This document shows, piece after piece, positions 7,273-62,523 of a stretch of 64,000 nucleotides of DNA. The translations under genes were made by a program, and so were the position numbers. Each line of letters opens with the position of its first letter. Position 1 is the first letter of the stretch. Below the pieces are notes generated by a model. The model worked only from the letters and a program-made list of their open reading frames with translations. It did no database searches and had not been told where the DNA came from. This stretch comes from Takakia lepidozioides (taxonomy: Eukaryota > Plantae > Bryophyta): the NCBI GenBank assembly GCA_030704615.1, contig CM060733.1, forward strand, positions 70,928,001 through 70,992,000, read 5' to 3'.

Positions 7273-13814
<6,542 letters not shown>

Positions 13815-14761: not shown

Positions 14762-15270
14762 TGTGAAGGCCCATTTCCTCCTGGTGACTTATTTTCCTAT
14801 TTCATCCATCCATCTATACTCATTCATCTAGTGTATTTTTTTCGCTTAACCATTAAACCGTTACACTCATAGTTAAGTTAGGGGTTAGTTTATATGCTAG
14901 CTTCGTTTTTGCCGTCCAATCAATCTATGGCCGGAAAGAGGCGCCTCGGGCTCAACCTATTGCGCCTCACCACGTGGCATGCAGCAGGCACCTAGGGTTA
15001 GTGTATAAAGCGGCGGCCTGACTTGTGTCAAACGACCTGGTGTACTCTGGTGAAACGTATGTGTAAAGGTGTGAGAGCTTCATTCGTGTTAAGGAATCCT
15101 GTCAGTTGTAGTGTGAAGCTGCAATATAGTTTTAATTTTACTTGTTGCGGGGATGAAGTGTACACTTGCCCTCTTGTTGGTTTTCTGTTTTCATCGTGGA
15201 GTGCATACTGTCTTTGGAGACAAATACATCTGGTTGTGCGGAAGGACATGGCAGCAGAGGGGATTCGACC
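14762..15270 (+). mobile_element. diverged LTR (14762-15248) plus PBS-like site, related to the LTRs of the dUTPase-bearing Gypsy element
   Basis: Starts TGTGA. Shares CTAGGGTT..GTATAAAG.GGCGGCCTGAC.TTGTGTCA and TGTACTCTGGTG with the reverse complement of 62066-62523. Ends CA, followed by tRNA-complementary-looking TGGCAGCAGAGGGGATTCGA. Confidence 0.6.
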
Positions 15271-25439: not shown

Positions 25440-26733
25440 TGAGACAGATTGGCAATACTTGGTGTCCAAGGAAGGCCCCGGGATCAACATGCCCTACTAC
25501 ACCCTGTGCACAGCGGAAAAATCTTTTATCCAGGGATGTACCTCAGATCTCTCTCCTCGTGGCTGATCTTCTTCCTGTACCAATTCCCTTAATCTTTCTT
25601 GTAAAGAATAAGGAGTGGCATCCAACTCTAGTTCTTCCGGTATGGGTGATGTACTCTCTGATCTTAATGGTGTGAGAGGTCCAGATGATTCCCCTATGTC
25701 TATTCCTCTCTCCCAAAGATATGGATAATTAGCTTCCAGATAACTTTCTCTTTTTGCTGAATATCTCTGGAGTCTAGCTTCTCTTTCATCACTCATGTCC
25801 TATGTCTTTCATATCTTTAATGAGGCAATAACCAAAACTCTCTCCTGTAGTATCTCTCGTATATGCCCGGATTTCTTTCAAGCTTCAATGCACCCTTGGC
25901 TATACTAGAGGTCTCTGTTACCATATATCCATATGGCAAGCACGTCTGAAAAGCTGTTTCTAGGTGTCAGTTTGATCCACAGGATATCCTTAGGAATCCA
26001 ATTCTTTACCAGTACAAGCTCTTCATGCATATGAGTGCAAACATTCACTTTCCTTTCCTCCCAGCCTTCAAACTCTACTCGCTTAATGGATAGCAATGCT
26101 ATCACATAAACCAGTGTAGGTAACCAACGTGCTCTCCCTCTATAGGCCACCCGATAAATCTTTATCACTCCTTTCTCCAAACCCCACTCAGGGTCAACAT
26201 CAAGCACTCTCTTAAGAATGTTTTCTTTACAACCGTCTAGCAATTCCAAGAACCTCTGAAAGAATTGTTTGGACAATCTTTCCTTCTCCGTTCGACAGGG
26301 AATTTGATTCACATCAAATTCTTTAATTCTCCAACCACCATGATCCCACCAGATGTCTGTCACATCTGGTTGTTCATGACCCAGTTCCCCAATATGGTCG
26401 CCAAATGTCGAGCGGCTTTTACTCACCCATCCCTTCGCTATCCGAGGTGGAAACTCCAAGATAGAAGAGTTGGAAATCTCTAAGCACTCAGCCCGCTCAG
26501 AACAATCAGTTATGACCTACAGTTAGTGAATCATGGTTGTTCTTCCTATTTGTATTTCTTCTTGCCTTCATGTTATCAATTTACCTTACTGTGTATACTG
26601 AAGCATCAGATTGCTTCAGTATCTATCAAGTTACATTTACTTTTCGATTCATTCCACAGCTTCACTCATGTCTCTTTACACAGTATGTTTGTATCGAATA
26701 AGTATCAGATTATGATTTATCAGGTATCAGGCC
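25440..26733 (-). mobile_element. 5' fragment of an LTR retrotransposon: LTR 3' part (26406-26733), PBS and unrecognised ORF(s)
   Basis: 26406-26733 is a reverse-complement homologue of 32068-32392. LTR end ...CGACA is followed by TT-TGGCGACCATATT. ORFs 25905-26400 and 25497-25796 follow. Confidence 0.7.
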
Positions 26734-26756
26734 AAAGACCCTCCATAGCTTCTCGT

Positions 26757-29700: not shown

Positions 29701-29952
29701 ATGGCCACGGCAGGCTCAGCTGTTTGCAATGAGGTGTACACCATCACCATTTCAGAATTACCCACCTGCAATTGCACCGACTTTCAGATCATGACGAACA
29801 AGGGGGCATCATACTGCCCTTGCAAGCATCTGTACTACGTGTACCTAAAGAGACTCCGGTGTAATTCCACAACTCATCACTTCATACATGCACCAGGGTT
29901 GAGCCCCCAAGAGGTGCACACTCTTCTGAATATGGATCCAGGGGACCAGTGA
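26757..29952 (+). pseudogene. Mutator-like (MULE) DDE transposase with N-terminal GCM-like zinc domain and C-terminal SWIM finger, about 1030 aa when reconstructed
   Basis: MFDH (~27894), FMADNAQA (~28098), CGFHW (~28182), TNMAESVH (~28569), SWIM CNC..CKH (~29767-29830). Phase-0 GT-AG intron 28438-28520. Lesions: TAG at 28011, frameshifts at ~28305 and ~28880. Confidence 0.8.
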
Positions 29953-31149: not shown

Positions 31150-32392
31150 GACATGGGAGAAGACTATGCATTACAGATGGCAGAGAAGAAGCGACGGGGG
31201 TCTCCTATGCCTGAAAGGTTACCTCGATATCAGCCTCCAGAGGGCCTCACTTATCCGGGTACTGTTCAAACATCTCCGTCAACCAGTGACAGACCTCGGG
31301 CTCGTACACACAGTCCGCCACGAAACTTTCAACGTCAGAAAGGTGCTCACTCACAAAGGTTTGCTAATCGCAATCAGTAAACCGTGAGGACACGGCTTTT
31401 TGAGAGGGGAAGGGGTAATGTTAGAGGACTGTCTGGGACTTAGACACTTATACGGGATCTGTAGGGTACCCTTAATTTTTGCACAGACTGAGATCAACAG
31501 GAGCCTTAGGGGTGACAGCAGCACACTGTAAAAGGGGGTTACACAGTCCATCACAGCCAACACAGCCCGTCACAGTCGTCACAGCCGACACAGCCATCAC
31601 AACCAACACAGCCCGTCACAACCGACACAGCCACACAGCCGGTCATAGCCCGACACAGCCAAACACAGTCGTACAGCCAGTCACAGCCCGTCACAGTTTC
31701 ACACAGCCAGTCACAGCTTGACACAGCTGTCACGACCATAGGGAACGGAGAGCAGGACATGGAACGACTGTGGGGAACAACACCTGCAAATGGAACATGT
31801 TAGTTCACGAACGACGGTTAGTGAGGGAAACGGTTAGAGCCACGGGTAGGAAGATAAAGGGAGAAGCAAGGACTGAGAAGGGGGGATTATTCTTGGAAGC
31901 ACGTCAGGGGGAGGACTTCTTGGTCAGGGAAGAGAGGGGATCGGGCGGAGAGCAAGAACGGAAGCAAGCATGGAGAGCACAGTGAAGGAGGAGAGATGAT
32001 TAGCAGATGCTTGTTATATGCAAAACTGTAGTGATATTGTAAAGCAGATTAGAGACACAATGGCTTCGGCCTGATACCTGATAAATCATAATCTGATACT
32101 TATACGATACAATCACACTGTGTAGAGAGATCTGAGTGAAGCTGTGGAATGAATGGATGAGTTGAAGGAATCCGATAGATTGATGAAGCAAACTGATACT
32201 TAATTATCAATGGTAAGGTAGCTAACATGAATGTGGAAAGGGAAACAAATAGGAAACACCCCCATGATACACTAGCTGTAGGTCATGACTGATTGTTCTG
32301 AGCGGGCTGAGTACTTAGAGATTTCCAACTCTTCTATCTTGGAGTTTCCGCCTCAGATAGCGAAGGGATGGGTGAGTAAAAGCCGCGCGACA
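31150..32392 (+). mobile_element. 3' end of an LTR retrotransposon: ORF tail, PPT and a complete 974-bp LTR (31419-32392)
   Basis: PPT GAGAGGGGAAGGGG, then TGTTAG...GCGACA. Internal CACAGCC-type tandem repeats 31540-31735. Homologous to 39722-40177 and 26406-26733. Confidence 0.8.
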
Positions 32393-44413: not shown

Positions 44414-44876
44414 GGGGGGAATCCCGGAGCAGCAGCAAAAAATCGACGCAGAAACGCCAGAAAGCTCAAAACCACTTTCAGGACCAATTAATCTCAAACA
44501 AAAGACATACAATTCAGGAGGCCAAACTCCCAACACATCTCTGAGAGAGACGAACAGCAGAACAGCGTGTAGTGCTCCAAGATGGAGGAATGTAGAGGCA
44601 GACAACCATCTCGAGATCAGACAGAGAGGAAGGATAATTGCAAGCAAGCCAAGCGCGCAGTGTCTTTATGAAAACTAGTCTTGAGGTTTGCCGGTTTGCA
44701 TCCCTCCCGTCCAAGGGAAACAGCCGGTCGCCCGCCCCTTATGACCGGTAACAGCCAGTCCATTTCCCGCCAAACTTGGAAACCAACATCCAACCCAGAA
44801 TTGTAGTACTTTTTTCTCTCTCTTTTTTTTTTTTTTTTTTTTTTTCTTTCAAGGCCCTAGGTGCACTGTGAAGCCT

Positions 44877-45289
44877 TAAAAGAAGCAGGATGAGTATCTG
44901 CCTATCCTCTCAAATGCTCTTCAAAACAAGGGGGGGTCAACAAGCGAACTGACCGAAAATCATACACATGTATCGCATTCAGACAGCTTTCCACATCTAC
45001 ATACACCATCAGTTGCCTGACACAAGGTCAGGCCGCCACTTTATACAAACCCTAGCTGCATGCCTTCTTGACGCGTGGCGAGGCGTGTCAAGCTGAGCCC
45101 ACGGCGCCACATCAAAACCCTAGATCTATTGAACGGCCATGATGCAGCCACCAGCCATAACTAACCCTGGCTATGATATCTTTGTAACAGTTCAACGGTA
45201 TTTTAAGCCAAAAATTTATACTACGAATGAGTGTCGCCGCTTTGGATGAATAAGGTGAATCTGTGATGAGGAAAGTTTGGGGCATCACA
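44877..45289 (-). repeat. 3' LTR of the dUTPase-bearing element
   Basis: Direct repeat of 62066-62523 with indels; starts TGTGATGCC on the minus strand. Confidence 0.85.
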
Positions 45290-45733
45290 TCTGTGAAGCC
45301 TACCCCCCACGAAAAATCCTGAGCTCCGCGAAGTACAATATAAGAAATAATAAATAAATGTTTGGGAGAAATCATCCACTGCTGGGTGAAAAACCTACCA
45401 AAGGAAAACCTGGCACCTGCAAATTGGGCCGAGGACAAAACTTTTGGCTAGGAAAACCGTGCAGGGAGTACACGTGGTGACATATCATAGGTCTACAAAT
45501 GTATCAAGAGCTAGAACAAAAGGCCAGAAAAGCCGTAAAGTGCCAAATCCGCAAGCTAACACTAATCCGCCGAAGAAGCCAAGCTGAAGAAGATCAAGAC
45601 ATCATCCCACCGTACGTCCCTCCACATTGATGCACGTAAGATCAAAGACCAGCTCGGAATGCACCAGATCCGTGAGAGAAACAGGTTTATTATGCGTGTG
45701 GACATTAAACCCATGTGGAAGAAGGAGAGCACG

Positions 45734-46745
45734 TCACCCACGTAAAAGCTCATAGATCAAGTATGGACCGTCGATCTTAAGCTTAGATTTGCATGCATGC
45801 TTACCATGCTGCAGCTGAATGCACACGGTTTGTCCCACTTGAAAAAGGTTAGAATACTTGACACGCTTGTTAAAATTACGGGCTTGGGTGGGCTGAGCCT
45901 TACCAATGTTTGTCTTGGCATCATGGATGGACACCGCATGCCGAGCATAAAGATCCTCAACAAAGGTCTCAAGATCAACTAGCTCAGCTACAGTAGAAAT
46001 AAGAGGGGTAGAATGCAAAGGAGAAACATACTTGTGACCATACAACAACTCAAAAGGAGTCTTCTTAGTGCTAGCATGCACGGCGGTGCGATAAGCAAAG
46101 AGAATAGGGGGAAGAAAGGTATCCCACTCCCTGGTAAGTGTGCCATTCTTCTCCAACATGCGGCAAAGAGTTTGGTTGAAGCGTTCCGTAAGGCCATTGG
46201 TCTGGGGATGGTATGGGGCTGTGGTGGAATGCTTGACACCAAAGTTGAAGCACACCACCGTGAGGAGCTGGTTACAAAACTCCTTGCCCTGATCCATTAG
46301 TATCTCCCGAGGACACCCATGACGCATAAGGATCTCATTGAAGAAGAACTGAGCTATAACATCACTAGTCTTGGTACGCAAAGGCCTGACTTCTACCCAC
46401 TTAGTCAAGTAGTCGGTAACTACACAAAGATAGCTTCGACCCTTTGATATGAGTGCGAGGGGTCCTACCAAATCAATGCCAACACGAGCAAAAGCATGTG
46501 TAATGGGCAAAGGCTGTAGCTCATACAAGATCCGGGCCCTAGGGAGAGCAATGTTAGCACGACAACCTTCACACTTAGAGATGAACTCCGTGACATCTCG
46601 GTGAATTCCCAGCCAATAGTAAACCTCTTGGATGCGGGCCACGGTCTTCTTGATACCAAGGTGACCTGTATACAAGGAACAATGAAAACGCTCCAATAAA
46701 GCATTCAGCTGGCTCCGTGGTGGCGCCTCCAAATAGCATGGTACT
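45734..46745 (-). pseudogene. integrase of the dUTPase-bearing element
   Basis: H..GHLG..C..C zinc finger, IDLVGPL, MDQGKEF, HPQTNGLTERFN, TPFELLYG, DGPY. Confidence 0.92.
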
Positions 46746-48380
46746 TGTCGCGCACCTCACTTCAGTAAGCTCCCCTTCAAGTCATAGTTACTCGCTTTGA
46801 TGCGCGCGCCTGACTCCCAACCTGGCCGCCGGGCCAACTTGGAGCTTCGGCTGCTCACCGGGGCATAACGGTCCCCCCTTTGTTCTCCCAAAGAACCCTC
46901 CACCGATTTGGAACCAGCGGGAATTCCCTTTGGTAGTTGGCAGTCCGGAACAGCTCCCCACTCTTTGGTCGCTTTCCGGCTCGCTCGCTTACTCACTAGT
47001 TTTTGGTCAGCAACGGGCTTGCACCGTTCTCGGGGTCACTACTCCCCTTATATATACTTCTGTAGCTGTCCGCGGGGGTTTCACAACCAGCCATGCCATT
47101 TTATGGCGAACCACCACGAAAACCCTCGACTCCCGGTGATGAGTCGCGGTGAGTCTTGGCCCACTCACCACGGCCCCTATGGACCGTGATGAGTCCCAAG
47201 ACTCCCCACGACTCCCACCACGAGGTCTCCGCCCCCATGGTGAGTCCTATGCCACCCCACTAAGTCCCGCTAAGCTACCACCACCCCTTGTGGAGTCACC
47301 CCCACCGCAACCCGGTGTGCGGGGCTCCACCTAGTGAGCGCCTCCGCCTCCTTGAGTGCCTTGGGCACTCAAGGGTGCTTCAGCCCCCGTACCTATCGCT
47401 GCTACTGCCCCCACCACAGGGGCAGCCCCTCTTGTGTCCCGACCCCCCCTGCCCTCAAGGCAAAGGGCCGCGACACACACCCCTACCAACAGGGAGTCGA
47501 TGTCCTCATCGACTTGTCCATTTTGTAGAAACAAACATCCAAGTTGTGGTGTCCCACATCAAGGAGTTTGTTTCCGTACCATGGCGTCCCATGGCAAAGA
47601 ACCAAACCCCACACTTGACTCTACTCTCCACTAGCTAGTTCGGCCGACTTCCTCCAAGTCCCGGCCAAGGGTGGAGCCTCTCCAGCTCCTCCCAGTGCAC
47701 TCTTCTTGGCCTACTTCAAGGCCAAGGAACAATCCTCCCTGAGGATCGAATCGCCTTACTGCAACAACATTGCTTGCGATCGCTCATGATGCCGCTTTTG
47801 GCATCACCTTGAGCAAGGGTTCCCTGGAACCCTCTTTGACTAGGAAGATAACCTTGAACCAACCGTACGCCCCAATCACTACAATTGGGTCCGCCTTGGA
47901 ATGCTGGCCTGAGGTACGGGAACACGTCGAAGCCGCACTACGACTTCGTCCCGAGGCTACACGATTATAGTACGTGAACGGAAGCACGTAGCTTCCGCGT
48001 TAGCCCGCACTACAAGGCAACCCCCTCGGTAGCGCAGTTATAGTACGCGCACGCGCCAGGTGCGCACTAGCACGTGAACTCCCAAAGAAGTCGCAAGTTT
48101 CCTTGCCCCTTGGATGGGGGTCACCCGATTTCGGCACTACGCAAACACACGATTAACCCAATTTACCTCTCCCACTTTTATAAGCTAGCATGCATTCTAC
48201 ACACTAGCCAACCATACCATGCATCACCATTCCAAACAAAATAGGACGCACAACATTTGGAACCCATTTCCTTTATAACAAATTTTTGTACAATACAAGT
48301 TTTTGTAATCGGATTCCTAAGCTAGCTAAGCCGGGCTAAGCATGCATTTCCTCCCCTACGCTCCAAGGTTGATGTCCCCA

Positions 48381-49110
48381 TCAACGTTTCTTCCGCTTTT
48401 GAGGTCGCCCTTCAAAAGCTGCAACCGCCTCGGATGCGTTTCCCATTTCTGAGGCACGCACCCAAGATGCCTCCACATGATGATAGCCCTTCCATTTGAC
48501 GAGATACTCCGTTTCTCGGTTCTTGAACCTCCTCGACTTAAGTATTGCCTCCACCTCGTACTCAGGTTCATTTTCATGATCCAACAGCATAGGTGGCGGA
48601 CGCAATACTTGATGCCGATTCGGACGCGCTTCATCTTTGAAGTAAGGCTTCAAAAGGGAGACATGGAATATTGGGTGCACCTTGCTGTTTGCCGGCAGTC
48701 GTAGGTCGGAAGGCGGTGCTCATCTTCAGCCTCGTCCCCATCTTCTTCCAAAGTGCTCTCCAGAATTTACTCGTAAACTTTGGATCGCGGTCCGAGACAA
48801 TATCCTTCGGGACTCCATGATGCTTTAAGACGTGGGCGAAGTAAAGTCGCCCTGTCTCATGCGCCGTTGTCGTCTCCTTGGTGGGGATGAAATGGCCCAT
48901 TTTACTGAACCTATCTACCACCACCATGATTGCATCGAATCCTTTTGACAGCGGCATAGCAGTCATGAAATCCATCGAGACGCTTTCCCAAGTCCCCTCT
49001 GGAATCGGCAAGGGTTGTAACAGCCCCGCTTGCTTTTTGTACTCGCTCCGGTTTTGTTGGCATGTGGTGCATGTCTTGACATACTCCTCTGCCTCCTCCC
49101 TCAGTTTGGG
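48381..49110 (-). pseudogene. chromovirus integrase (internally deleted) and chromodomain
   Basis: SMDF and SDRDPKF are present, but ~473 bp equivalent to 15839-16311 is missing at ~48700. Chromodomain YEVEAIL..EYLVKWKGY is intact. Confidence 0.9.
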
Positions 49111-50997
49111 CTAGAAATACTCTTTCTTCAAGAGTGCCGCAGTGCGCTTGGCTCCGCCGTGGCCCGCAAGCAGGCTATCATGGCATTCTCTCAAGAGGCT
49201 ATCTCTGATCCCTCCCTTCGGCACGTAGAGATGTTTTTTATTATACCGGAGCAGTCCATTTTGCAAGTGGAACTGCGATTTAACCCCCATCCTCAAGTCC
49301 TGCATCACGGACTTCGTCAGCTCATCCTTCCGGCAAGCCTTCCGGATCTTCCTTTGGAGCGTCGTCTCGCCCTTGTACACCAACAAGAGCTGCTGCTTTC
49401 TACTTAAAGCATCGGCCACCACGTTGTCTCGTCCCGGTTTGTACTGGATATCCACGTCGAACACCGCCAAAGTATCTTGCCACCTAAGTTGTTTTGGGGA
49501 CAACTTGGGCTGCGTGGCAAAATACTTCACCGTGACATTGTCCGTGAACACCTTCACTGGGTTGGAACCAACATAGTGGCGCCAAAGCTCAAGACAGTGC
49601 ACCACCGCCTTCATCTCTTTCTCGTGCGTCGGCCACCGTCGCTCCACTTCATTCAGTTTCTTACTTTCGTAAGCCACTGGACGTCCATCTTGCATCAGTA
49701 CACCCCCAATCGCGAAGTCCGACGCATCTGTGTGTATCTCGAACGGACGATCGAACTCCGGGATTTTCAAGACTGGAGCTTCCGCCATCCGCTGCTTCAA
49801 TTCAGCAAAAGCTTGGCCACAAAAGGTGTTCCATGCCCAGACTTTAGATTTACACAGAAGGTCTGATAGCGGCCCCGCAATCTTGGCGAAATTTCTCACA
49901 TACTTTCGGTAATAGGAGGCGAGTCCTAGGAAGGATCGCACTCCCGGGACCAAAGTCGGAGGCTCCCAGTCCAAGATCGCCCTCACCTTTCTGTCATCCA
50001 TTTTGATCCCATCCTGTGTAATCACATGCCCCAAGAACTCCACTTTTGTGACCCCGAATTCGCACTTTGAAGCTTTGGCATACAGCTTCCCTTCCCGCAA
50101 TTTTTGGAACACCCTTTTCAGGTGCTCCAGGTGCTCCTCCTTTGTTTTCGAGTACACCAAGATGTCGTCGATGTACACGATCACAAAGTCATCTAACCAC
50201 TGCTGGAAAAGGCTGTTCATCAGCGTGCTAAATGTCGCCGGTGCATTGGTGAGCCCAAAAGGCATCACCAAGAACTCATATGAACCATACCTTGTCCTGC
50301 ACGCGGTCTTCTCCTCATCTCCTTCCGCCACCCGAATTTGGTGGTAGCCGGAGCACAAGTCGATCCGGCTAAAATACTTTGCTCCTGCCAACCGATCGAA
50401 GAGGTCGTCGATCCTTGGCAAATGGTACCGGTTTTTGATAGTCACCTTATTCAGAGCCCTGTAATCGACACACATCTGCAGCGTCCCATCCTTCTTGTCT
50501 GCAAATAGCACCGGGGCTCCATAAGGTGACTTACTCGGCCGGATGTACCCCTTTGACATTAGATCCTTGAGCTGAGTCTTCAGCTCGACCAACTCCCTGT
50601 GGCTCAACCGGTAGGGTGCCTTGGCAGGCGGTTCCGATCCCGGTATCACCTCAATCTTGTGGTCAACTCCTCTTCGCGGTGGCAAGCCGCTTGGTAAATC
50701 CTCCGGCATCACATCCTGGTATTTCTCCAAGATCCCCTTGATCCAATCTGGGCTCGGCTCCCCATTGCCTTCTCCCTTCACTTCTCTAATGTAAAGCAAA
50801 AACTGGGGCTCGTGTGCCTCCTCCACGGCCCACTCCTTTGCTGACAGAAGGTTTATTCGCCCTCCCACAGATTTGGGCGTTTCCGACACTCTTAAAACCT
50901 CGCCACCATTCCCACATGGCAGCGTGACCACTCTCTTGCGGCCATCTATGACCGCTCCGGATTTGCTCAAAAAGGTCATCCCCAAAATGAGATCCAC
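49111..50997 (-). CDS. chromovirus pol: reverse transcriptase, RNase H, start of integrase
   Basis: [42 protein letters not shown]; ends at a premature TAG. Confidence 0.93.
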
Positions 50998-52394
50998 TCC
51001 ATCAATCTCGCAGATGGTGAAGTTCTCACGTCCCTCCCAACTCCCAGTTGAAGAGGAACATCAAACGCCAACCTTGTCGCCAACTGTGGTTCTCCTTTGG
51101 CAGAACACACCTCAATAGAGGCCCCCACGTCACTTGTCGGGAGTCCCAACTTTCGCGTCGCCGCCGGCGTCATGAAGGAGTGCGACGCTCCTGTGTCCAC
51201 CAACAACGACACGTTAGTTCCGGATATTATCCCATCCACGAACAATAACTGACTCCCTTTACGCAGGGCGCCAGTTTCCTGATACAACTCACAAGAATAG
51301 TTGCCTACCTTGCAAGTCCTGGCGACCACCGCTTCCACCAAGCGACTGATGGTATCTTCCGACAGCTCCGTGGTTGCCCGAGTCATGTTCAATTGTCGAG
51401 GTTTTGTGCACTTCTTGGCCATGTGCCCGGGCTCCCCGCAATTGAAACACACTCCATCAAAGGTCGCCTTCTGTCCGCCATAAGCCGCTCCACCCGCTTT
51501 TCCTTTCGAAGCACCGGGTGCCGCCTTGACGTGTGAAGGCCCTCCCTTCGATTTCCACGTGCCATTGTCGCCGCGTGGCCTATCCCACTTCTTTTCCGGT
51601 CGGAAGGAGTCACCTTCCCGCCGGGTCTTCTTGTGGTTCAGCTCCGTATGGCCTTGTCTCTCACCCCTAGGGACATCCGAGAAACATTCAGCCCTCTCAA
51701 TTGCCTCGTTCAAAGTCTTGGGTGGCTTCTCCTCCAACTTCCGCCTGGCCCATGGGGCCAACCCCACCACAAAGTTGAAGACCATTTCTGGTTCTGCCAT
51801 GTCCGCGACTTCGAGCAACAGCACATTGAAAGCTTGGACATACCCCCGAATGTCATCTGTTTGCTTCAAATTCCTCATCTTGTCCCGGGCAAGCCAAGAT
51901 GCGTTGAGGGGCACAAACTGTCTCTTCATCAATTCCTTGAACCCACTCCAGTTCAAGGTTTCCGGGCTTGGGCCTCGGTTGTGAAGGCGTTTCTGCCACC
52001 ATTGTTGAGCATAGCCCCTCAAATAGGTGGGAGCCACTTCCACCCGATCCTCGTCACTCAACTTGGCCGCCCGGAAGTACTGCTCTAGCTCCAGGAGCCA
52101 GGTGTTGAGTGCCTTCCGATTTCGGACGCCCTCAAAGGTGTCGGGTTCCTTAGGCTTCACCTTAAACTTTGCCTTAGTGGAAGTGGCATTAGCCGCCTTC
52201 AACACGTCTTTCAACGTCCCGCCAAACTGCGCCAACAACCCTTCCCAAAAGGCTGCCGGCATGGGAGGCATCTCTTGGTTTGTCGGAACTCTCAAGGATT
52301 CCTCGGGCTCCAACTCCTCGGACTCCTCCCGCTCTTGAGCGGCCTCGTTTTCGGAAACATGCATCGCTTCCTCAAACGGCCGCCTCGGTGACAC
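50976..52394 (-). CDS. chromovirus gag-protease
   Basis: Retrotransposon capsid region, [14 protein letters not shown] knuckle, LVDTGASH protease; frameshift to pol near 51040. Confidence 0.92.
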
Positions 52395-53679
52395 GTCGCC
52401 CCCATCCGGCTCACCAGGATCATCGTCTTTTGGGCCGTTCCGCTTTCGCCCGACCCCATTATGAGGCCAATCCCAAGGACGATCGCGTACTGAACTCTAA
52501 GCTCTGATACCAAGTGTCGCGCACCTCACTTCGGTAAGCTCCCCTTCAAGTCATAGTTACTCGCTTTGATGCGCGCGCCTGACTCCCAACCTGGCCGCCG
52601 GGCCAACTTGGAGCTTCGGCTGCTCACCGGGGCATAACGGTCCCCCCTTTGTTCTCCCAAAGAACCCTCCACCGATTTGGAACCAGCGGGAATTCCCTTT
52701 GGTAGTTGGCAGTCCGGAACAGCTCCCCACTCTTTGGTCGCTTTCCGGCTCGCTCGCTTACTCACTAGTTTTTGGTCAGCAACGGGCTTGCACCGTTCTC
52801 GGGGTCACTACTCCCCTTATATATACTTCTGTAGCTGTCCGCGGGGGTTTCACAACCAGCCATGCCATTTTATGGCGAACCACCACGAAAACCCTCGACT
52901 CCCGGTGATGAGTCGCGGTGAGTCTTGGCCCACTCACCACGGCCCCTATGGACCGTGATGAGTCCCAAGACTCCCCACGACTCCCACCACGAGGTCTCCG
53001 CCCCCATGGTGAGTCCTATGCCACCCCCACTAAGTCCCGCTAAGCTACCATCACCCCTTGTGGAGCCACCCCCACCGCAACCCGGTGTGCGGGGCTCCAC
53101 CTAGTGAGCGCCTCCGCCTCCTTGAGTGCCTTGGGCACTCAAGGGTGCTTCAGCCCCCGTACCTATCGCTGCTACTGCCCCCACCACAGGGGCAGCCCCT
53201 CTTGTGTCCCGACCCCCCCTGCCCTCAAGGCAAAGGGCCGCGACAGTACTCCCCCTCTAGTGAGCTCCTTGAAAAGCTTATCACCCATGAAGCGGTGAGT
53301 AGACACATGATAAAGAATTTGCTTGCGCAAGGACTCGGAAAGGCCAGCTGGCGAACGCCCTGATTGGCATCGCTGGAGTAGCGCAGCATGTAGCTGATCA
53401 TCCATGACTGCACTGCACATAAGAGGTAGACAATGGGCTTTAAAGAAGGTGGTCTGGAGTGCCTGCACCTATGATCTCCAGCCAGGGATATCTTCACCTC
53501 ATTTGTTACTACTCATGGAGCCAAATCGGGCCTTGAAGTTCAAGCCAATAGTCACACCGGAGTGCAGCAGCCGAATCACAACAAACTCGGGGCCAAGGAA
53601 AAAGAAGAGCTGGAACAAAACGAGGAACTTCCACCAAACCATCCAAATTCTCCCTAAGCGATAAAATCCACCACACATG

Positions 53680-55410
53680 CTAACACATGAATATATCAAC
53701 CAGGATCATCAAGAAGGCTAGACCAGCCCCAAGCAGCCAATATGCCATCTGAATCCAAGTCAAGGGGTGCTGATCTGCACAAAGGAGGTTGAGAAGCGGA
53801 GGAGGGGCTGCATCAGCAGCAGCAAGGTCATCCAAGGTAAGCATAGGCCTGCTGACATGACGATCTAGGCGGTGAGATGCATAAGCTATCACATGCTCTT
53901 TACTTTCTACTACTTGACATAAGATTGCAGAAATAGCAACATCGAATGCATCAGTCTGAAGCAGAAAAGGGAATTCAAAGTTGGGAAACATCAGGATGGG
54001 AGCTGAACATAAGGCTTTGCGAAGAGTGTCAAAGGTTGTTTGCTGGGAGAAGCTCCATTCAAACCTGGCATCCTTGCACAATACCTTGGTCAGAGGGTGA
54101 GCAAGTTGGGCAAAGTTCTTTATGAAGCGCCTGTAATAGGAGGCCAGACCAAGGAAGGACTTAATGCAGTGTTTGTCCCTGGGAATAGGAAAGCCCCAAA
54201 CAGACTCAAGCTTGGCAGGATCAGGAAGCAAACCATCCTTGGACAGAATATGCCCAAGAAAGTGTAACTCAGGCATAAACAGCTCACACTTTTTGGGTTT
54301 AACCTTGAGTCTTGCAGTTCGTAATTTGCTGAAAACACGCTGCAGATCAGTCAAGTGGACATCAAAGTTGGTTGAGTATACATTGATATCATCAACATAA
54401 ATCAAGGCACATTCCCAGCGAAGATTACCTAAGACAATGTCCATGAGGCGTTGGAAAGTAGAGGTAGCATTGCACAAGCCAAAGGGCATGGTTTCGTATT
54501 GGTACTTGCCCATGCGACACACAAATGAAGTCTTTTCCTTGGCTGCTTCAGTAAGAGGAACTTGCCAAAAACCAAATGCAAGATCAAGAGAGGAGAAAAT
54601 GGTAGCACCATGCAGTTGATCTAAGGTTTCATTGATCCTGGGTAGAGGGTAGGCATCCTTCTTAGTGATGTCATTCAATTTCCTGAAGTCAACACAAAAG
54701 CGAGTAGTGCTATCTTTCTTATCAACCAGGACAATGGGACTGGCCCAATGAGAGATTGATGGCTTAATTACACCAGCATCTAGCATCTTCTGGACTTCTT
54801 CCTGGACTATGGCACGTTCTTTAATACATTCTCGGTATGCAAATTGTTTAATAGGAGGTCCCTCAGTGACAATGTCATGTTGAAGGATGGGAGTACGCCC
54901 CAGATCAGTAGATCCCAGGCTGAAAATATCGAGATTTTTTGCAACAAGCATTTCTACTCTTTTCTTTTGGCCAGGGGAGAGGGTACTTCCTAATGTAAGT
55001 TCATACAACACTTTGGTAAGAGCCTTCTTACCTTCAGGACTGAGATCAGGGAGAGGTGGTGGTGCTAGAGCAGCAAAGGCAACGACAGCATCCACAGGGC
55101 CGTGTTGAATGCCAATGGCCTCCAGCCCAAAGCCAACTTGCACTTCTTGTATTTCAGCAATGGGCAGGGCAGTGATACGAGCCAGGACCTGCCCTTTCTT
55201 AATGGTCACAGGAAAGTGCTCCGGATTAGCAATCAACACTTTGACCTCCTGCCTATATCCTCTATCTATAACCCCAGTAGCCACCAAGCAATGCTCGAGA
55301 GCAGTGAGTCTCCGCCAACCTTCTACTTCCAGGAAATGAGCAGTTGGGCATAAAAAAGCCAGACCAGACTTGATCACTTTCTGGGTCATAGCAGGGATGG
55401 TGACATTCAT
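53680..55410 (-). pseudogene. pol of the host element: dUTPase-like domain, RT, partial RNase H
   Basis: TIPA..QKVIKSGL..GVIDRGYRQEVKV..N..VTIKKGQVLA (55410-55150); FCVDFRKLN, MPFGL, YVDD; TDA.D, IAYAS; remainder of RNase H lost. Confidence 0.88.
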
Positions 55411-55551
55411 GGGTGCACGAATCAGAGTAGAATTTTTGGGGACAGCTATCCCTGTTCTACCATCAGCACTAGGAACATGCCATTGATATAAGAGTTGCAG
55501 ATCAGGCTGAAGTTTGTAAAAATCATTCCAATTGAGACTGGAGTGAGAGTT

Positions 55552-58110
55552 CTATTGTACCTCTTTCACCATTGCCTGAACTCTGGATAGATTGGCTGTG
55601 GCAAATCCAGCTCTAAGTTTCACAGCCTTCAATGGAACAACGACCTCATGACCCTCACCATTGTTAAATCGGAGGGAGTAATTGGCCAGACTGATGGTTG
55701 CACCAGCTCCAGTCATCCAATCAAGGCCTAGCAAGAATTGATCGCCTATAGTGACTATACATGTAACCACGACCTCCTTCTTGTGAATCCTGATAGGCAC
55801 AGTGACCAAACCTAGAGGCTCATATCTGGACCCATCCGCAATTAGTACTTCAACACCAGAGGCAGGGCATAACTTAAGACCAAGAATTCTCACAATATTA
55901 GAGGCATAGCAGATATGGTGCAACCCGTGTCGATTAGACAAGGGAAACTCAACTCGTGAATATGGCATTGGGCCATAAGAGGGCTGATCTGTTGTCCTGA
56001 GGTCTGCCTGCTTAGAGGACAATGCAAAGCTTTGAAATTAGTAGACAACACAGCTTGCAAAGGAATGAGAGAGGAAGGGTTGGTGAATGGTGGACCTCTT
56101 GCCCCCTTCCCAAGAGGTCTGTCTAGTTTAAAGGAGGGTTGGAACCACTGGCAGCCTTTTTGTTTTTAAGCAGCTCTGGTAGGCCTGCTCTATCAGGACA
56201 ATGCTTGGTCCAATGTTCAGAAGACCCACATATGTAGCATGCGGCTCGGTTGCCTTCATAGGCCTGACCAGTTTGGGTACGACCTCTGTTGCTACCACTT
56301 GTCTGTGCTTGTGGCTGTCTAAGCTGCCACCGTTGCTGATGAGCTTGCATGGTAGCGAACTGAGTGGCAATTGACTCACTTAGACTACCACTGTGTTGGC
56401 CAGCCCTTGAAGAGTGAAATTAACTGACTTATATTGCATAGCAGGCGGGACATAAGGTGAAGATGTTGCAGCCATGCCAAGCTCGGAGCCCACTAGAGCT
56501 TGAAACTTGGCACGAGTTTGCATTGATTTGCTGTCAGGTAAGTCTGCCATCTTAAGATTAATTTCAGCTAGCATAATTTTGTCATTGACAAAATGACGAC
56601 GTTGGGCCCAATTTTGAATACCATGGGGCAAGCCAAGGAGAAAGTAGGTCTTCACCATACGATCACGTTCTGCTAGATCAAATGATATTTTCTGCAGCAG
56701 CAAATTTTAGATCCATGTAATACTTCCACAAGGACTCTCCTGGCTGGTAAGTCCTGGAGCTCAAGTTGGTGAAGCAGTCCAAGGGTCTTTCAGGTGGTTT
56801 GAATAGGGTTTTAGCCCATTCCACAAGCCCAAGTGAGATGGGGGTCATCCATGACAGCTGCATGCAACAAGTCACGGGCTGGTCCCTTCATGCTCATTCT
56901 AAAAATTGCCATTTTAAATTCTTAGGCACACCATTCACATTAGCAATCACTTCAAACATCTGAAGATATCTATCAAAGTCTTCTCCCATTGTGTATTCTG
57001 GATAGGGCTGGGTAGTGAGCTGAGGAAGCAAATGACAGGGCAGACTATGATTCAGGTGACCAGGCTGAGCATATCCATGGGCCGGGCAGCAATGAGCAAT
57101 AGCCTGAGTCTGATTGGTGGTTGTATTCATAGCATGGACCCCACTAGTAACCGGGACATAGTTGTTACTCATGACATTAGAGGGACCTTGGCTAGGCGGT
57201 AATGTTGTCACGCCCACCTGGGGTGCATGAAACACAGGCCTTGACTGACCATGGCTGCTTGGTTTGGAGCCACTCCACTCATGGTGGGAATGGGTGGCCT
57301 TCCCAATTGTTGTTGGACTGACTGACCGCCTACACTAGAGCTAGAACAAGTAGTATTCATGCCAACAGACAATCCAGAAGTCACAGACACACCAATTCCT
57401 CCCCCAAGAGCGGGATTAGAAACATGCACCATAGAATCAGGCAAACCAGCATTAGTTGCTACGTTGACACGAGCATTTGACGGGGCTGGCATACCACTCA
57501 CATGAGCCCTTCCCACTGGGACTTGCACATTTGCATTGCATACACCACTAGCAATCGGGTCTAAAGAAGGGGGATGGATGGCATGCCTGGAAATACCACC
57601 CAAAGGACTGGCTCCTGTAACTTGAGACAGGCCAGGCATCATGGCCATATGTCGAGTAGAGGCTAGCTGATCAGCAGCTGCGGATAGGCCCTCGTTAGTG
57701 ACAAAATTACCAGTACTAGCTACACTTGGCACCACAGGCCCATTGCCAGGCAACATAGTGACCCCTGGAACTTCAAATTGCACTATCTTTGTGAGACCAG
57801 CGGGCGTCACCTGAACATCATCTAATTCTTGGGAAACAATACCATCTTCACAAGATAAATCAGTATAGAGACTGGCCTCTGGTAGAGGCGATCCCTCATC
57901 TAGACTTACCATCCCATGTTGCATTCGCGGATTGTCACTCAAATTATCTGTAGGTGATGGAAGACCCGGCTCTCTGACCTCGATAGGGGCTGATTCCGTT
58001 GTGGCCAGATCGGGAGCATCCATTGCAACACGTTGCCTCCCATACCTCAGCCAAGTATTAATAGTGTTTCTTACCATACAACATGAAGCAACGAGTCCAA
58101 ACACGAACAA
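55552..58110 (-). pseudogene. degenerate gag-protease of the host element
   Basis: FDRYLQMFE, QPGESL, FLLGLP, CYICGSSEHWTKHC knuckle, LIDTG protease, LLGLDWM; stops and frameshifts. Confidence 0.8.
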
Positions 58111-58560
58111 GAAAATATTTTGTTCTGATTAAACTATGTCAAGATATAGGAATAGTAGAGAGATAACCTAGAAGCAACGAATACCAACAAGAGTTCTGAT
58201 TAAGCCAAAGTCGGCGAGCAGGGATGGGTAGCAATCCGCTACAGCAGCCCGCAACACCACGATCGTCCTTAATTCAAGGCCAGGTCGAACAGGAGATCAC
58301 CTTGGTGATGTCGTGCATGGAGAGCGCCCACCATTTCCACGTGCTCGTGGTCTTAACCCAAAAGGACACACAGGTAGAGTTCTCCTTCTCCCAAATGCGA
58401 GATAGCACTGAATCAACAGGAAAGCGATCAAGATTTTCAAGCATCTCAGGTCTGACAAGCCGTTGATCGTCAAATAAAGTCCTTGGCAAAATGACAATGT
58501 CGGAAGCTTGGCCAAACAGACTATCCGACGACAGTCCTTGAAGCAGGTCGATCGACGGTG

Positions 58561-61040
58561 CACTAGAAGAGAAACCGGCTTTTTCCACGGCTCTTTTCAC
58601 ACTTTTTGCCGTGGAATCCGCCCCAGTCCACACCTGCCGTGGGTGTAAGAAACGACTAGTGCTTTCGGACACCCCGTGGACGGCCTAGCTCTCGGGTGGC
58701 CCTGTGGAAAAGTCCACGGGTGGTTGAATCCACGGGTGGCCTTTTTCACGGGGTTCATGGCTTTTTCCACGGGCGACGTGTGCTTTGGCAAACACCGCAA
58801 CGTGGATCCTAAATGTACAAAGGGTGTGGACTTGTCCACACCTACGGAAAAATGATGCGACACCCTGTCACCTGGGCTTGACGACATGTGGGCAACGGTA
58901 TGGGCAACACGTGTATTTTGGAGAGGACGGCACGTGGCGTAATCTGTACGGAGTGGGTCTGTAGTATTTTACTGCCTATACTGTAGGTCATTCCACATAG
59001 CTGTGGAGCATACCATAGTGGGTGTGAAATATTCTACTGCTGATGTTGTAGGTCATTCCACAAAAATGTGGAGGATGCCACACGCAAGCTGCGGTTGATT
59101 TCACATATTTGTGAACATGGTGTGCACAATTAATCCACATGCATCATGATCATATCACAAATCGTGATACTGTCCACACTGTCAGTTTCACAGTCCATGT
59201 GAAATATGACTCATATACATAAACACAATTCCAAAGCACCACGGCTTGCTCATGACATGTACAATTGACTAAGCATGGCCAGAACAACAGAAAGAATGAC
59301 CAGATGCAAGGGTGCTTCAAAGTTGGGTACACCCTTCATTGCCCAAATACAATTTAGTCTGAACATGCAAGTATTGTAGAGTCTGCACTGCTGATCACAA
59401 CCCCACAATGTACCCAAATCCTACATTGATGCGCAAAATCACGAAGAAAAGGTGAAATCGATATGAAGTGGCGTTCAGTCAAAATTGCCTTCAAACTGAG
59501 GATCCCCTACAACCTCATGTTCGGGTAACTTGGCAGACCACAGGGCCATGCTGCCTATAGTGTCACTGAGCATCACAACGGGAGGCCTAACATCATTGTT
59601 GGGGTATGGTAGAGCAACATCCGCCCCATGTACTGCTTCAACCGAGACAACATGATAATCGGCATGAACGACATAAGCCTGCCAGTCGGTCGACATGCCC
59701 AACATATGGCCCATGCCTGCCTTCCGTTTGGGTGCATTGGGGTCAAACATTGTGACCTTGTCACCAACCTGAAACTAGAACAGCCAACACCACCAATGTG
59801 TGCCCTTGTCATTTGTTATGCACATGAAACAGTTATGGACAGGGAAAACGCGAGATGTCATCATATAGCCCTGCAAACAAAATACGGATATACTTCCACG
59901 AAGGGAAACTTACAACAGGAGCCGGCGCTTTGAAGCTTCCCATACGGCTCCCATCAACGTTGCTGGCAGCAAGTCTTGCGGACTTCTTGGTCATCTTCAC
60001 CGCAACAATTTCCTTTGGTGGCTTCTGAATCAATAGAAACCCACACATGTACACAGAATTCATGAACGGCCTGCAGGTATTGCATAATCGACTTGGAACA
60101 GCACAAGAATATAGGAACACGAGTACTTACCTTCCGAACAATGGCCAATTTTGTTGTTGAATCAATGTTCTTCCCTGCCCCAACAATAACCACTCCTGTG
60201 CCCTTAGCCCCTGCCCCTATGTCTTGGGCACTCTGTCTAAGTTCACTGCCGGTGTGATCCTCCACTACAGGCACTCCCTTCTCAATAAGGGGGGATAGGT
60301 CATCATTGGCACCATAATTAAGGCAAGGATCGTCACATGCCATGTTCTGAACTTTGTCCTCACCTGTGGCATCTTCTTCCACAATACTGCCCCCTTTCTT
60401 TTGTCCACTGCCTCCACTGCTAGGAGGCTGCTCACCTGTACTTGTCATTTCCACAGTAGCCGCAAGTGGGACAACACCATGAACAGGGGGCGACAATTCA
60501 CACACAATGTTTGATGCTAATGGAGATTCATCCCTCGGCAGGTCCAAACCGAGCTTCGCTGCCAATGCCATGTTGAACTTCTCTGTCTTAGATACTGCAG
60601 CGGCAAACATGGATTTCACTACCTGCAATTCCAATTTGTGCTCCATTGAGCTGGCCTCCATTGTATGTTTCCATCCTTCCAAGCCATCAAGCCGAGAAGC
60701 CAATGCTCCAAGGCCCTGCCACAAATAGAGTGGAAATACGATTCAATACATCGATCGCACTAGCCATGCGAGGTAATTTATTGGCATATGTACAAGAAGG
60801 CAAAACCATAAATAATTGACAAGCACATCATTGCAACAAATGCAGGTGGGTTAGTTACTTACAGAACGGGTGGCCCCTGCTGAATCGGAACCATACCCCT
60901 TGTTGCTATTCTTGCTCCCCGAAATTTCGGATAGAAGTGGAGGACGACCACTTGTCTTAGCCTACACATGGACAGGATATGGGAATATTAGTGCCATCCT
61001 CTAAGAGTAAGATACAAATGACAAGACACCTCGCTACCTG
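58561..61040 (-). mobile_element. truncated CACTA element: terminus at 58561 and a spliced ORF2 (TnpA-like) remnant
   Basis: CACTAGAAGAGAAA terminus with CCACGG/CCGTGG subterminal repeats. Minus-strand GT-AG exons at ~60863-60960, 60131-60716, 59911-60026 and 59475-59768; last exon V.V..V...DVALPYP...LSDTIGS..LW resembles En/Spm ORF2 domains. Right boundary approximate. Confidence 0.7.
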
Positions 61041-61055
61041 AATATATTGGCAATG

Positions 61056-61826
61056 TCATGAGACAGGCAGATTTACCAGACCTTTGTTGGGCTCGTGATG
61101 AAAACGAAGAAGACGTAGAATGAGAGAGCCCGTACCTCGGAGAGCTAACGACAGCCAAGATGGCTCGACAAAGGAGGAAACCAGCCAATCACGGTGAACA
61201 CGTTCAATAGATAAAGGAAGATGAAGCCCCTGTTCTTTCCACGACAGAGCCTGATGATTCAAGAAACGGGACTTGACCACATCACGAGACAGACGAGCAG
61301 CGTTCCTCGAAGCCACAACTTGCCTTGTCACAGAGAGAGAGTCCGCAGCGATCACCGTTGGGTCAAAGTCAGGTCGTCTGGGCGCCGAAACTCGACCCTC
61401 AGTGAAGTAGGATATGTCCCGTTGCACTGCAATCTCTATCTTGTCAAACCAGAATTGATCAACATAAAGTAAGTTACACACTGTAGCATCATACTCATGT
61501 GAATGAGCTATGTCCCTCTCAAATTCTCGCTCCTGCTCTCTGGGACAGACGTAATCGGGCCCTGGATCATGATAGTTGTCAAAATTGTAATACTCTGGAT
61601 CACAGCTATCCAATGAACCGGACCTCGCAGTGCTTGGCGACCAAGCCTCGGCTGCAGCTAGATTAGCTTCTTCACTAGGACTAGGTGAATTCAAGCGGAC
61701 AACAAGACCTGAATCAACAGCATTATCTCCACGCACCGGCAACACCGGCAAGGCAAAGAGTGCCAGGCGGCGTGCTGGAAGAAGGAGGGTTAGCAGATGA
61801 AGCAGAAAGTGAAACGACCAGATCAA
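61056..61826 (-). CDS. extra ORF of unknown function between PBS and gag
   Basis: 256-codon open frame on the element strand; preceded in frame by ATG-TAG; no recognisable domain. Confidence 0.4.
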   Translation of the reverse strand: MIWSFHFLLHLLTLLLPARRLALFALPVLPVRGDNAVDSGLVVRLNSPSPSEEANLAAAEAWSPSTARSGSLDSCDPEYYNFDNYHDPGPDYVCPREQEREFERDIAHSHEYDATVCNLLYVDQFWFDKIEIAVQRDISYFTEGRVSAPRRPDFDPTVIAADSLSVTRQVVASRNAARLSRDVVKSRFLNHQALSWKEQGLHLPLSIERVHRDWLVSSFVEPSWLSLALRGTGSLILRLLRFHHEPNKGLVNLPVS

Positions 61827-62065
61827 GCTCTACATGCAAGCGCTCGCCTTCACGATTAACAACACTTCTAGTAATCAACACATGAGACGCCATAGTCTGA
61901 AACATAAGCAAGTTTAACGAGCAAGCATGGAGAGAATTCAACACTAAGCAAATACACTGCAGGGTGGTGGGCTGCCGCCATCCTTATAAGACACCGAGGA
62001 GCTCTTAATCTTAACCTAAGCACGCCGTTTAATGATCAAGCAAAACACCCGGCGCGCCTCCACCA

Positions 62066-62523
62066 TGAAAGAAGCAGGACGAGTATCTGCCTATCCTCTC
62101 AAGTGCTCTTCAAAACAACGCGGGGAGAACAATAGGAGCGTGCATGCACGCGAGAGGAGGATCTCAATGAGCAAACTGATAGAAAATCATACACACGTAT
62201 CGCATTCAGACAGCTTTCCACATCTACATACACCAGAGTACATCAGCTGCCTGACACAAGGTCAGGCCGCCACTTTATACAAACCCTAGTCGCATGCCTT
62301 CTTGACGCGTGGCGAGGCGTGTCAGGCTGAGCCCGCGGCGCCACATCAAAACCCTAGATCTATTGAACGGCCATGATGCAGCCACCAGCCATAACTAACC
62401 CTGGCTATGATATCTTTGTAATGGTTCAACGGTATTTTAAGCCAAAAAATTATACTACGAATGAGTATCGCCGCTTTGGATGAATAAGGTGAATCTGTGA
62501 TGAGGAAAGTTTGGGGCATCACA
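62066..62523 (-). repeat. 5' LTR of the dUTPase-bearing element
   Basis: TGTGATGCC...TTTCA on the minus strand, followed directly by PBS-like TGGTGGAGG. Confidence 0.88.

Follow-up and report, generated by a model that had tools for sequence, protein, structure and literature searches.

Does the pol gene of a plant Ty3/Gypsy retrotransposon carry a dUTPase between its protease and reverse transcriptase (RT), and if so, is the domain still an enzyme? The question is raised by a locus in the bryophyte Takakia lepidozioides, found in a 64,000-nucleotide stretch of contig CM060733.1 that is called the window here. A sequence-only reading had proposed that a dUTPase-like domain precedes RT in the same frame, with motif III kept and the other motifs degenerate, and had taken it for a second nucleotide-level cargo in the window that either limits uracil in cDNA or is a repurposed pseudo-enzyme.

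Phanerochaete elements and Tuber Tmt1 are reportedly among the fungal Ty3/Gypsy elements with a dUTPase. Such domains in LTR retrotransposons have been described as rare acquisitions and assumed to exclude uracil from cDNA. PosPlaTy3-5 of Postia placenta belongs to a fungal Ty3/Gypsy set in which dUTPase occupies three positions, the one between protease and RT included (PMC2864245), and fungal chromoviruses carry dUTPase (PMC2774666). The bdelloid rotifer elements Juno, Vesta and TelKA also have one, the domain being "rarely found in retrotransposons" (PMC5408684), and a dUTPase or dUTPase-like domain is reported for the giant Burro elements of planarians (PMC6431247) and for the vertebrate metavirus ancestral to PNMA genes (PMC11011659). 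The distribution given in the sequence-only reading, a few fungal Ty3/Gypsy elements beside retroviruses, is thus right as to the fungi and too narrow, since rotifer, planarian and vertebrate elements must be added. Its statement that dUTPases are not standard in plant lineages agrees with the REXdb paper, the accessible text of which has no mention of dUTPase and lists none among the extra domains of plant Ty3/Gypsy lineages (PMC6317226).

The region of interest is a minus-strand open reading frame (ORF) of 623 codons, positions 53,680-55,551, that holds the domain and RT in one frame. All three peptides singled out beforehand (TIPA..KVIKSGL, GVIDRGYRQEVKV and N..VTIKKGQVLA) are present in it, in frame with RT, the second of them being motif III. 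Searched in isolation, the stretch 55,102-55,500 matched Pfam model PF00692 as anticipated, its 40.5 bits exceeding the cut-off of 22 (E 2.8e-10). The best PDB sequence match was yeast dUTPase 3p48 (E 4.3e-08); Arabidopsis dUTPase 4oop was far weaker, E 0.078, and recent capture of a host plant dUTPase is accordingly unsupported. An AlphaFold2 model of the domain shows the dUTPase beta-barrel, with a mean pLDDT of 81.9; it is not fully independent evidence, because its 13-row input alignment included intact dUTPases. Foldseek placed yeast dUT1p 3hhq first for this model (E 1.1e-07, probability 1.00, TM about 0.68), with a dUTPase-family entry in every row among the matches listed, and ESM Atlas returned dUTPase clusters with a score of 0.96, PF00692 being annotated on 37% of the members of the first cluster. 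Profile and structural matches to trimeric dUTPases are therefore both in hand, and the proposed identification stands. Searching with the related protein P0003 by tblastn gave a single frame from 55,896 to 53,866 at 47.6% identity, with the protease part adjoining upstream and its first portion in another frame; this places the domain where it had been expected. Positions 55,147-55,422 thus encode a trimeric-dUTPase-fold domain. The element to which it belongs is a dead Ty3/Gypsy of non-chromoviral type, in which the domain sits after the protease and before RT; its parts are listed in Table 1.

Table 1. The dUTPase-fold element and its two insertions, in element order (the element reads on the minus strand).
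Feature	Position	Strand	Basis or remark
5' LTR, TG...CA	62066..62523	-	self-comparison; contig bridging LTR and internal region at 61,798-62,095
PBS starting TGG, directly after 5' LTR	62048..62065	-	sequence
Second insertion, starts CACTA	58561..61076		contigs of other copies skip it; joint 58,560-61,077
gag region, interrupted by stop codons and frameshifts	56190..57109	-	six-frame view; tblastn
Aspartic protease region	55552..56048	-	match to P0003
dUTPase-fold domain of pol (likely pseudo-dUTPase)	55111..55434	-	Pfam, alignments, model
PF00692 envelope of the domain	55147..55422	-	ORF residues 44-135; Pfam E 5.8e-09
Motif I site	55414..55434	-	alignment
Motif II site	55303..55320	-	alignment
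Motif III	55246..55275	-	GVIDRGYRQEVKV
Motif IV site	55171..55191	-	alignment
Motif V			none
Reverse transcriptase	54244..54918	-	RVT_1 E 1.3e-32 at 54,244-54,723; ORF residues 277-436
RNase H, first half	53851..54057	-	Pfam; ORF residues 499-567
Nested young chromovirus within pol	46746..53245	-	LTRs, TSD GTACT (5 bp), Met-type PBS, chromodomain
Integrase, H2C2 and rve	45734..46756	-	Pfam; the nested element lies between it and the other pol domains
Likely 3' LTR	44877..45289	-	about 95% identical to 5' LTR, 395/416 aligned columns

From 5' to 3' the element consists of LTR, PBS, a long 5' region, gag, protease, dUTPase-fold domain, RT, RNase H, integrase and LTR, about 8.6 kb once the two insertions are taken out. 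The LTRs, the PBS, gag and the PR-RT-RH-INT order make it a Ty3/Gypsy element. We take the PBS to match the 3' end of tRNA-Ala. A CCHC zinc knuckle lies near 56,200-56,245 in gag, and residues 6-143 of P0041 match gag at 56,696-57,109 (E 2.8e-06). The catalytic DTG of the protease is in a different frame from the remainder; Pfam gave no match on the window protease fragment, and the P0003 protease matches PF13975 at E 5e-4, below the cut-off of that model. A purine tract at 45,299-45,308 adjoins the likely 3' LTR, whose assignment is less sure because an 11-base repeat flanks it and no target-site duplication brackets the element (the sequences flanking the two LTRs differ). This copy may be rearranged. 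It is dead in any case, through the protease frameshift, a stop codon between protease and dUTPase-fold domain, the broken gag, an RNase H reduced to half (relatives' homology ends near 53,850, and the second half is absent) and the two nested insertions. The family is multi-copy: a 701-base stretch was matched, at 80-100% likeness, by 198, 219 and 283 contig records in three runs of one sample and by seven further records from a plant-metagenome run of a different study. No RNA run is among those listed with matches, which has no bearing on expression.

Relatives of the element were placed in an RT tree of 44 rows, made up of chosen rows plus 20 drawn at random from 121 proteins with the cryptic form of the domain described below, with a chromovirus pair as outgroup. 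The window sequence groups with P0003, P0008 and P0010 (support 100/96), and P0156, which also has a half-eroded domain, is sister to this clade (98/94). The RT of the chromovirus nested in the window pairs with one from Tanacetum, separate from the rest at 100/100. The dUTPase-fold element is not a chromovirus by either mark used: its RT lies outside this pair, and Pfam finds no chromodomain after its integrase. Several searches for further members of the clade came back empty. With just the domain region as query, a word-based search yielded no member among 279 candidates, although relatives exist by other searches; the 16 matches from a profile search in longer proteins added no clade member; scanning metagenomes with the clade alignment brought up no relatives among 232 pattern matches; and a scan with P0010 returned 28 metagenome loci, none with a clade-type domain.

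The motifs were compared in the window sequence and five relatives whose domain is of this type (P0003, P0008, P0173, P0231 and P0232), the RTs of P0003 and P0008 being about 70% identical to that of the window. For motifs I, II, IV and V we use the labels AGYDL-type, PRSG, GDRIAQL and RGxxGFGSTG, respectively. The motif I Asp is replaced by Leu in all four clade members that cover the site. In motif II, Arg has become Trp in six of six and Ser has become Arg, Lys or Gln, again in all six. Motif III reads GVIDRGY in the window; its catalytic Asp is kept there, as the sequence-only reading had it, and in five of the six sequences clade-wide, P0003 having Asn. The Tyr and Gly of this motif are conserved in all six, the second Asp in two, the final Gly in three; G76, R80, Y82 and R83 are invariant throughout. 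The motif IV Arg is Val in every member and its Gln survives in P0231 only, not in the window. Motif V is missing from all six, and is present in P0019, P0194, P0244 and P0291 within the same alignment. A GFG at ORF residues 140-142 was considered as a motif V and rejected: it comes too early in the sequence, and relatives have GADLG there.

Alignment with a solved dUTPase and with relatives thus bears out the degeneracy of motifs I, II, IV and V, and extends it to a family consensus in which I, II, V and most of IV are gone across the close clade. Active dUTPases possess all five motifs, the motif 3 Asp positioning the attacking water (Hizi and Herzig, PMC4531489). Motif III builds a hairpin that binds uracil and deoxyribose, and removal of the P-loop-like C-terminal motif V from EIAV dUTPase abolishes catalysis and hardly changes binding (PMC4531489). 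Given the clade-wide motif loss and the five-motif requirement, the family is, to judge from its residues, very likely inactive, and the loss is older than the decay of the window copy. Because close relatives share the same losses, the domain is likely a pseudo-enzyme at the level of the family, rather than one decayed in this copy alone. Of the two functions offered at the outset, the pseudo-enzyme gains support and the uracil-limiting enzyme does not.

Copies of the family were compared for signs of constraint. The comparison used the 40 best-supported of 217 differences, all from contigs of a single sample; 23 of the 40 lie in the region of the domain, and 16 of these 23 are synonymous. 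The expected synonymous share is 25% counting all changes, or 35% counting transitions only (binomial p 7e-6 and 6e-4, respectively), and the rough dN/dS of the domain, resting on those 23 differences among the best 40 of 217, is 0.14-0.23. None of the 23 listed differences alters a residue of motifs I-IV. The window and P0003 are 47% identical over the domain, 36% over the protease part, 48% over the connection/RNase H region and 71% over RT. This purifying selection could reflect merely the need for a well-folded polyprotein spacer.

A homotrimer of the domain is predicted by ESMFold2, with a median score of 0.45 (runs of 0.47, 0.45 and 0.33, the last below the mark of 0.42), the best of three controls scoring 0.00; contact agreement between runs was at least 77% and the pLDDT of the partner 66 or more. 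In the calibration, made on two-copy jobs, from which a trimer job differs, 20/30 solved pairs and 1/23 single chains reached the mark, and among eukaryotes 17/29 and 0/30. Because solved dUTPase trimers exist, the score may stem from the model's memory of them. In the predicted trimer the C-terminal strand would be swapped onto a neighbour, residues 112-122 touching the neighbour's residues 46-52, and Trp62 would contact the motif III hairpin of the neighbouring subunit.

Alignments to many RT relatives span 80-90% of the query, yet Pfam finds no dUTPase in these proteins, and the spacers between protease and RT were therefore examined. A profile of nine intact dUTPases was run on 147 non-redundant spacers: 50 matched at E<1, and 13 passed E<1e-3 (seven of the 13 have a recognisable dUTPase, and four come from proteins in the profile itself), against 2/147 and 0/147 for reversed spacers. 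The eight spacers from proteins with a recognisable dUTPase were then removed, leaving 139. A profile grown from the P0022 spacer, with no dUTPase as input, gathers 110 of these 139, which is not a superfamily-wide rate because the sample is biased to RTs resembling the query. Compared by HHalign with the intact dUTPase profile, it gives 96.9% and E 2e-10 over 79 columns (0.3% for the reversed control), and its top score is the window domain (E 4e-12).

The fold of this cryptic domain was modelled on P0124, a protein with no Pfam match, from a 72-row alignment chosen to leave out proteins with a recognisable dUTPase. The model has a pLDDT of 89-98 by block. Foldseek ranks dUTPases first (probability 1.00, E 3.8e-05), and VIA-align places Streptococcus mutans dUTPase first, with Z 10.0 and rmsd 3.0 over 98 aligned residues. 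The top 22 rows of the VIA-align results (Z 5.9-10.0) are dUTPases, dCTP deaminases and two herpesviral proteins, ORF10 and pp71 (7byf, Z 8.2; 8qdo, Z 7.7); the next row is at 4.8. In this widespread cryptic form motif III is entirely lost. Sorting a redundant set of 190 RT-bearing proteins gave 118 with a cryptic domain, 4 semi-eroded, 2 intact, 36 without the domain and 30 too short. The cryptic domain was also found in 12 of the 28 metagenome loci from the P0010 scan and in 4 of 17 named proteins (two from fish, one from a pseudoscorpion and one labelled MAG). In P0305 a cryptic domain precedes RT (E 4.5e-10) and an intact dUTPase follows RNase H, and P0291 likely combines an intact and a cryptic domain in tandem (second domain E 1.1e-4), so that the dead fold is kept even beside an intact-looking enzyme.

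The window domain is likely a less worn member of this cryptic dUTPase-fold domain at the same position in Pol. That a more worn fold occupies so many related spacers, together with the non-fungal published cases, weakens the notion of a rare captured cargo. In an unrooted domain tree of 44 rows and 92 columns, semi-eroded and intact domains, the window's included, are split from cryptic ones by a branch with 98/95 support. The tree does not give the order of events, because the classes were defined by similarity, which is partly circular, and because there is no root; the split is compatible with activity having been lost later and independently in the window lineage, a loss that may have started from an inherited intact domain or followed a re-acquisition.

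The reading that we prefer, and hold to be probable, is that Pol in this multi-copy non-chromoviral Ty3/Gypsy family includes a dUTPase-fold domain in which motifs I, II and V and most of IV are gone. On this reading the domain is likely dead as an enzyme and likely retained for a non-enzymatic role, as a module for which a homotrimer is predicted. Made as a portion of Gag-Pol, such a module would, by three-fold assembly and the usual swap of the C-terminal arm, cluster Pol precursors, or the protease and RT products, within the particle; clustering is the role that we infer for it there. The hairpin of motif III, whose Tyr is invariant and flanked by two Arg, would likely be structural, or might bind a nucleotide without hydrolysing it, and the phosphate site would be blocked by the invariant Trp that has replaced the motif II Arg. 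The main rival gives that hairpin a larger part: the trimer, no longer catalytic, would bind dUTP, dUMP or uracil-containing nucleic acid through it and act as a sensor or sink near RT. We think this unlikely, even though the uracil-binding hairpin is the only motif kept (PMC4531489), its G76, R80, Y82 and R83 do not vary in the six sequences, and binding by EIAV dUTPase is largely intact without the C-terminal arm. The cryptic form persists with motif III wholly lost, and in the model the invariant Trp that stands for the motif II Arg would lie against the next subunit's hairpin. Real catalysis, an active or weakly active dUTPase limiting uracil in element cDNA as in lentiviruses and betaretroviruses, is very unlikely. 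The motif III Asp (5/6) and Tyr (6/6), a fold and trimer that are predicted intact, and five-motif intact domains at the same position in the related P0019, P0244 and P0291 would suit it; against it stand the loss of motifs I, II and V in every clade member covering them, the loss of the motif IV Gln in 5/6, the Asn at the catalytic Asp of P0003, and the finding that motif V is indispensable for catalysis by EIAV dUTPase (PMC4531489).

Next in line after the nucleotide binder is a vestigial folded spacer of no specific function, the protease-RT junction needing just some folded linker, which would leave the low dN/dS to constraint at the level of the fold alone and would fit the failure to detect the domain in 36/190 related Pol proteins and in the window's chromovirus. 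We regard it as distinctly improbable: the domain is conserved as much as connection/RNase H and more than the protease, it is retained in most sampled lineages, even alongside an intact dUTPase, and frequent deletion would be expected of a dispensable domain of 100 residues. Neutral decay, in which an intact dUTPase wore away in the window copy alone, would account for a copy with a stop, frameshifts, a truncated RNase H and two nested insertions; its probability is practically nil, since relatives with RTs about 70% identical have identical replacements and the 23 listed differences between copies leave the motif I-IV residues untouched. A dead dUTPase repurposed to bind host proteins would have to work from within Pol, in which the domain is embedded, and Pol is usually produced in small amounts. 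No host-binding motif was seen in the domain, and the fold persists in very different hosts. Precedents for such an effector exist in adenovirus E4-ORF1, which is dUTPase-like, inactive and acts on host signalling (PMC5622948), and herpesviral ORF10 and pp71 turn up in the structural comparison with the cryptic domain; the chance that the window domain is of this kind is nonetheless slight.

If the domain is kept as a non-enzymatic module, as we prefer, it has partial parallels. PosPlaTy3-5 and its fungal kin resemble the window element in having a dUTPase within pol between protease and RT; they bear chromodomains, whereas the window element is non-chromoviral, comes from a plant and has lost four of the five motifs family-wide (PMC2864245). 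Juno, Vesta, TelKA, Burro and the PNMA-ancestor metavirus share the protease-RT position in non-fungal Gypsy elements and are described as rare acquisitions, with no discussion of catalytic state or of a hidden form in the accessible text of those papers. The dUTPase-related peptide of BIV and JDV is, like the window domain, an inactive relic conserved in pol, and its mutation in BIV blocks progeny production (PMC4531489). That lentiviral peptide is truncated to about 74 residues and lies between RT and integrase, in contrast to the full-size fold between protease and RT in the window. E4-ORF1 (PMC5622948), ORF10 and pp71 likewise repurpose a dUTPase fold without activity, as free-standing viral effectors on the host and not as part of Pol.

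Among seedless plants, REXdb distinguishes Selgy and Phygy as non-chromoviral, non-OTA-type Ty3/Gypsy lineages; Selgy has a tRNA-Ala PBS in 90% of elements and a length of 4.4-6.7 kb, Phygy a mean length of 8,628 bp and mostly a tRNA-Trp PBS (PMC6317226). By description, Selgy would share the Ala-type PBS that we presume for the window element and differs in length, and Phygy is close to its roughly 8.6 kb and differs in PBS; no extra domain is listed for either in the accessible text of that paper. dUTP is unmentioned in the accessible text of PMC13524379, and what could be consulted of PMC12083454 and of 10.1101/2022.09.06.506765 deals with host dUTPase only. Among the matches listed from open PMC and bioRxiv, none describes a plant Gypsy dUTPase or a cryptic spacer fold (subscription papers, Repbase and GyDB notes could hold either). 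A dUTPase between protease and RT is therefore known from fungal, rotifer, planarian and vertebrate elements, and the plant case and the hidden fold are apparently undescribed, no paper on them having been found.

Within the family, a fold has been retained after its chemistry was lost, in a plant lineage outside the REXdb domain catalogue. We give about even chances to a wider proposal, that the protease-RT "spacer" in much of non-chromoviral Ty3/Gypsy (animal, fungal and seedless-plant) is a dead dUTPase-fold module that trimerises Pol, the published captures being its visible tip and the window lineage a half-eroded one and the first case in a plant Gypsy element. Were this general, an unannotated domain would join the standard PR-RT-RH-INT picture, scattered captures would be recast as retention, erosion and re-acquisition, and about 100 residues would offer a testable target for the role of dead dUTPases in retroelements, a question that BIV also raises. 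The number of PF00692 matches counted in plant proteomes may be inflated by domains of this type as well (compare 10.1101/2022.09.06.506765); in Entomophthora, PF00692 is enriched together with transposable-element domains (10.1101/2023.09.13.557621).

Elsewhere in the window, a CACTA transposase was detected, as were weak PPR-like fragments below the Pfam cut-off, and no tRNA or Rfam match was found. The transposase and the PPR-like fragments, taken with the plant-metagenome records and the chromodomain of the nested chromovirus, point to a land plant, likely a seedless one. The chromovirus nested in pol has LTRs with 727 matches and 3 mismatches over 730 aligned bases and no detectable dUTPase-fold domain between protease and RT; the label "Tcn1-like", considered for it, is ruled out by its Met-type PBS. 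Its chromodomain shows, by eye, the aromatic residues Y-W-Y, a cage reported as confined to non-seed plants (PMC6317226).

Two Gypsy Pol proteins related to the Gypsy element (the dead Ty3/Gypsy copy carrying a dUTPase-fold domain between protease and RT) have, the second of them likely, more than one such domain. One, P0305, has both a cryptic dUTPase fold, that is, a worn fold in the protease-RT spacer that Pfam does not see, and an intact dUTPase, the latter placed after RNase H. The other, P0291, likely has a cryptic fold and an intact dUTPase in tandem, before RT. The sequence-only reading had called the dUTPase-like domain a second nucleotide-level cargo in the window; the other cargo is probably the C-5 cytosine DNA methylase domain of the Table. 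Upstream of the methylase domain are ORFs resembling gag and protease, which belong to a different retroelement. Retrotransposons with a methyltransferase are known.

Features of the window, in window coordinates
Feature	Position	Strand	Details
C-5 cytosine DNA methylase domain	1,724-2,905	+	PF00145, E 3.4e-13
Exon of host MIT-domain protein	13,257-13,955	-	PF04212, E 1e-21
Inverted, diverged copy of the Gypsy element's LTR	14,816-15,072		about 71% likeness
Long ORFs with SWIM-like zinc finger	26,484-29,949	+	E 0.04
Chromovirus nested in the Gypsy element	46,746-53,245	-	3 LTR mismatches, Met-type PBS, chromodomain
Stretch between RNase H half and nested insertion	53,246-53,850
Two ORFs in the long 5' region of the Gypsy element	61,056-61,829; 57,208-58,128	-	257 and 306 aa
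2.5-kb insertion	58,561-61,076		begins CACTA

Within the Gypsy element, the two ORFs of the 5' region lie upstream of the recognisable gag and have no Pfam match; they are possibly an extra 5' ORF, or else a long Gag N-terminus split by the 2.5-kb insertion. The 2.5-kb insertion has no end matching its CACTA start, and contains 65-base repeats and a 262-aa ORF without a Pfam match. The stretch following the RNase H half shows no likeness to any RNase H tested, despite being covered by contigs from all three sequencing runs compared.

Comparison of the LTR flanks found no matching TSD around the whole element. An 11-base direct repeat brackets the likely 3' LTR (44,866-44,876 and 45,291-45,301), separating it from a purine tract 9 bases away, and may mark a rearrangement. 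The inverted LTR copy is likely an old solo LTR.

The nested chromovirus is very young, as seen from its few LTR mismatches, yet has separate frames for gag-protease, pol and integrase. Chromovirus-related pieces occur elsewhere in the window, at 15.4-18.1 kb and 63.4-64.0 kb. Inverted repeats (26,406-26,737 and 32,064-32,392) enclose the ORFs with the SWIM-like zinc finger, an arrangement that suggests a DNA transposon. The MIT-domain protein is presumably VPS4/SKD1-like.
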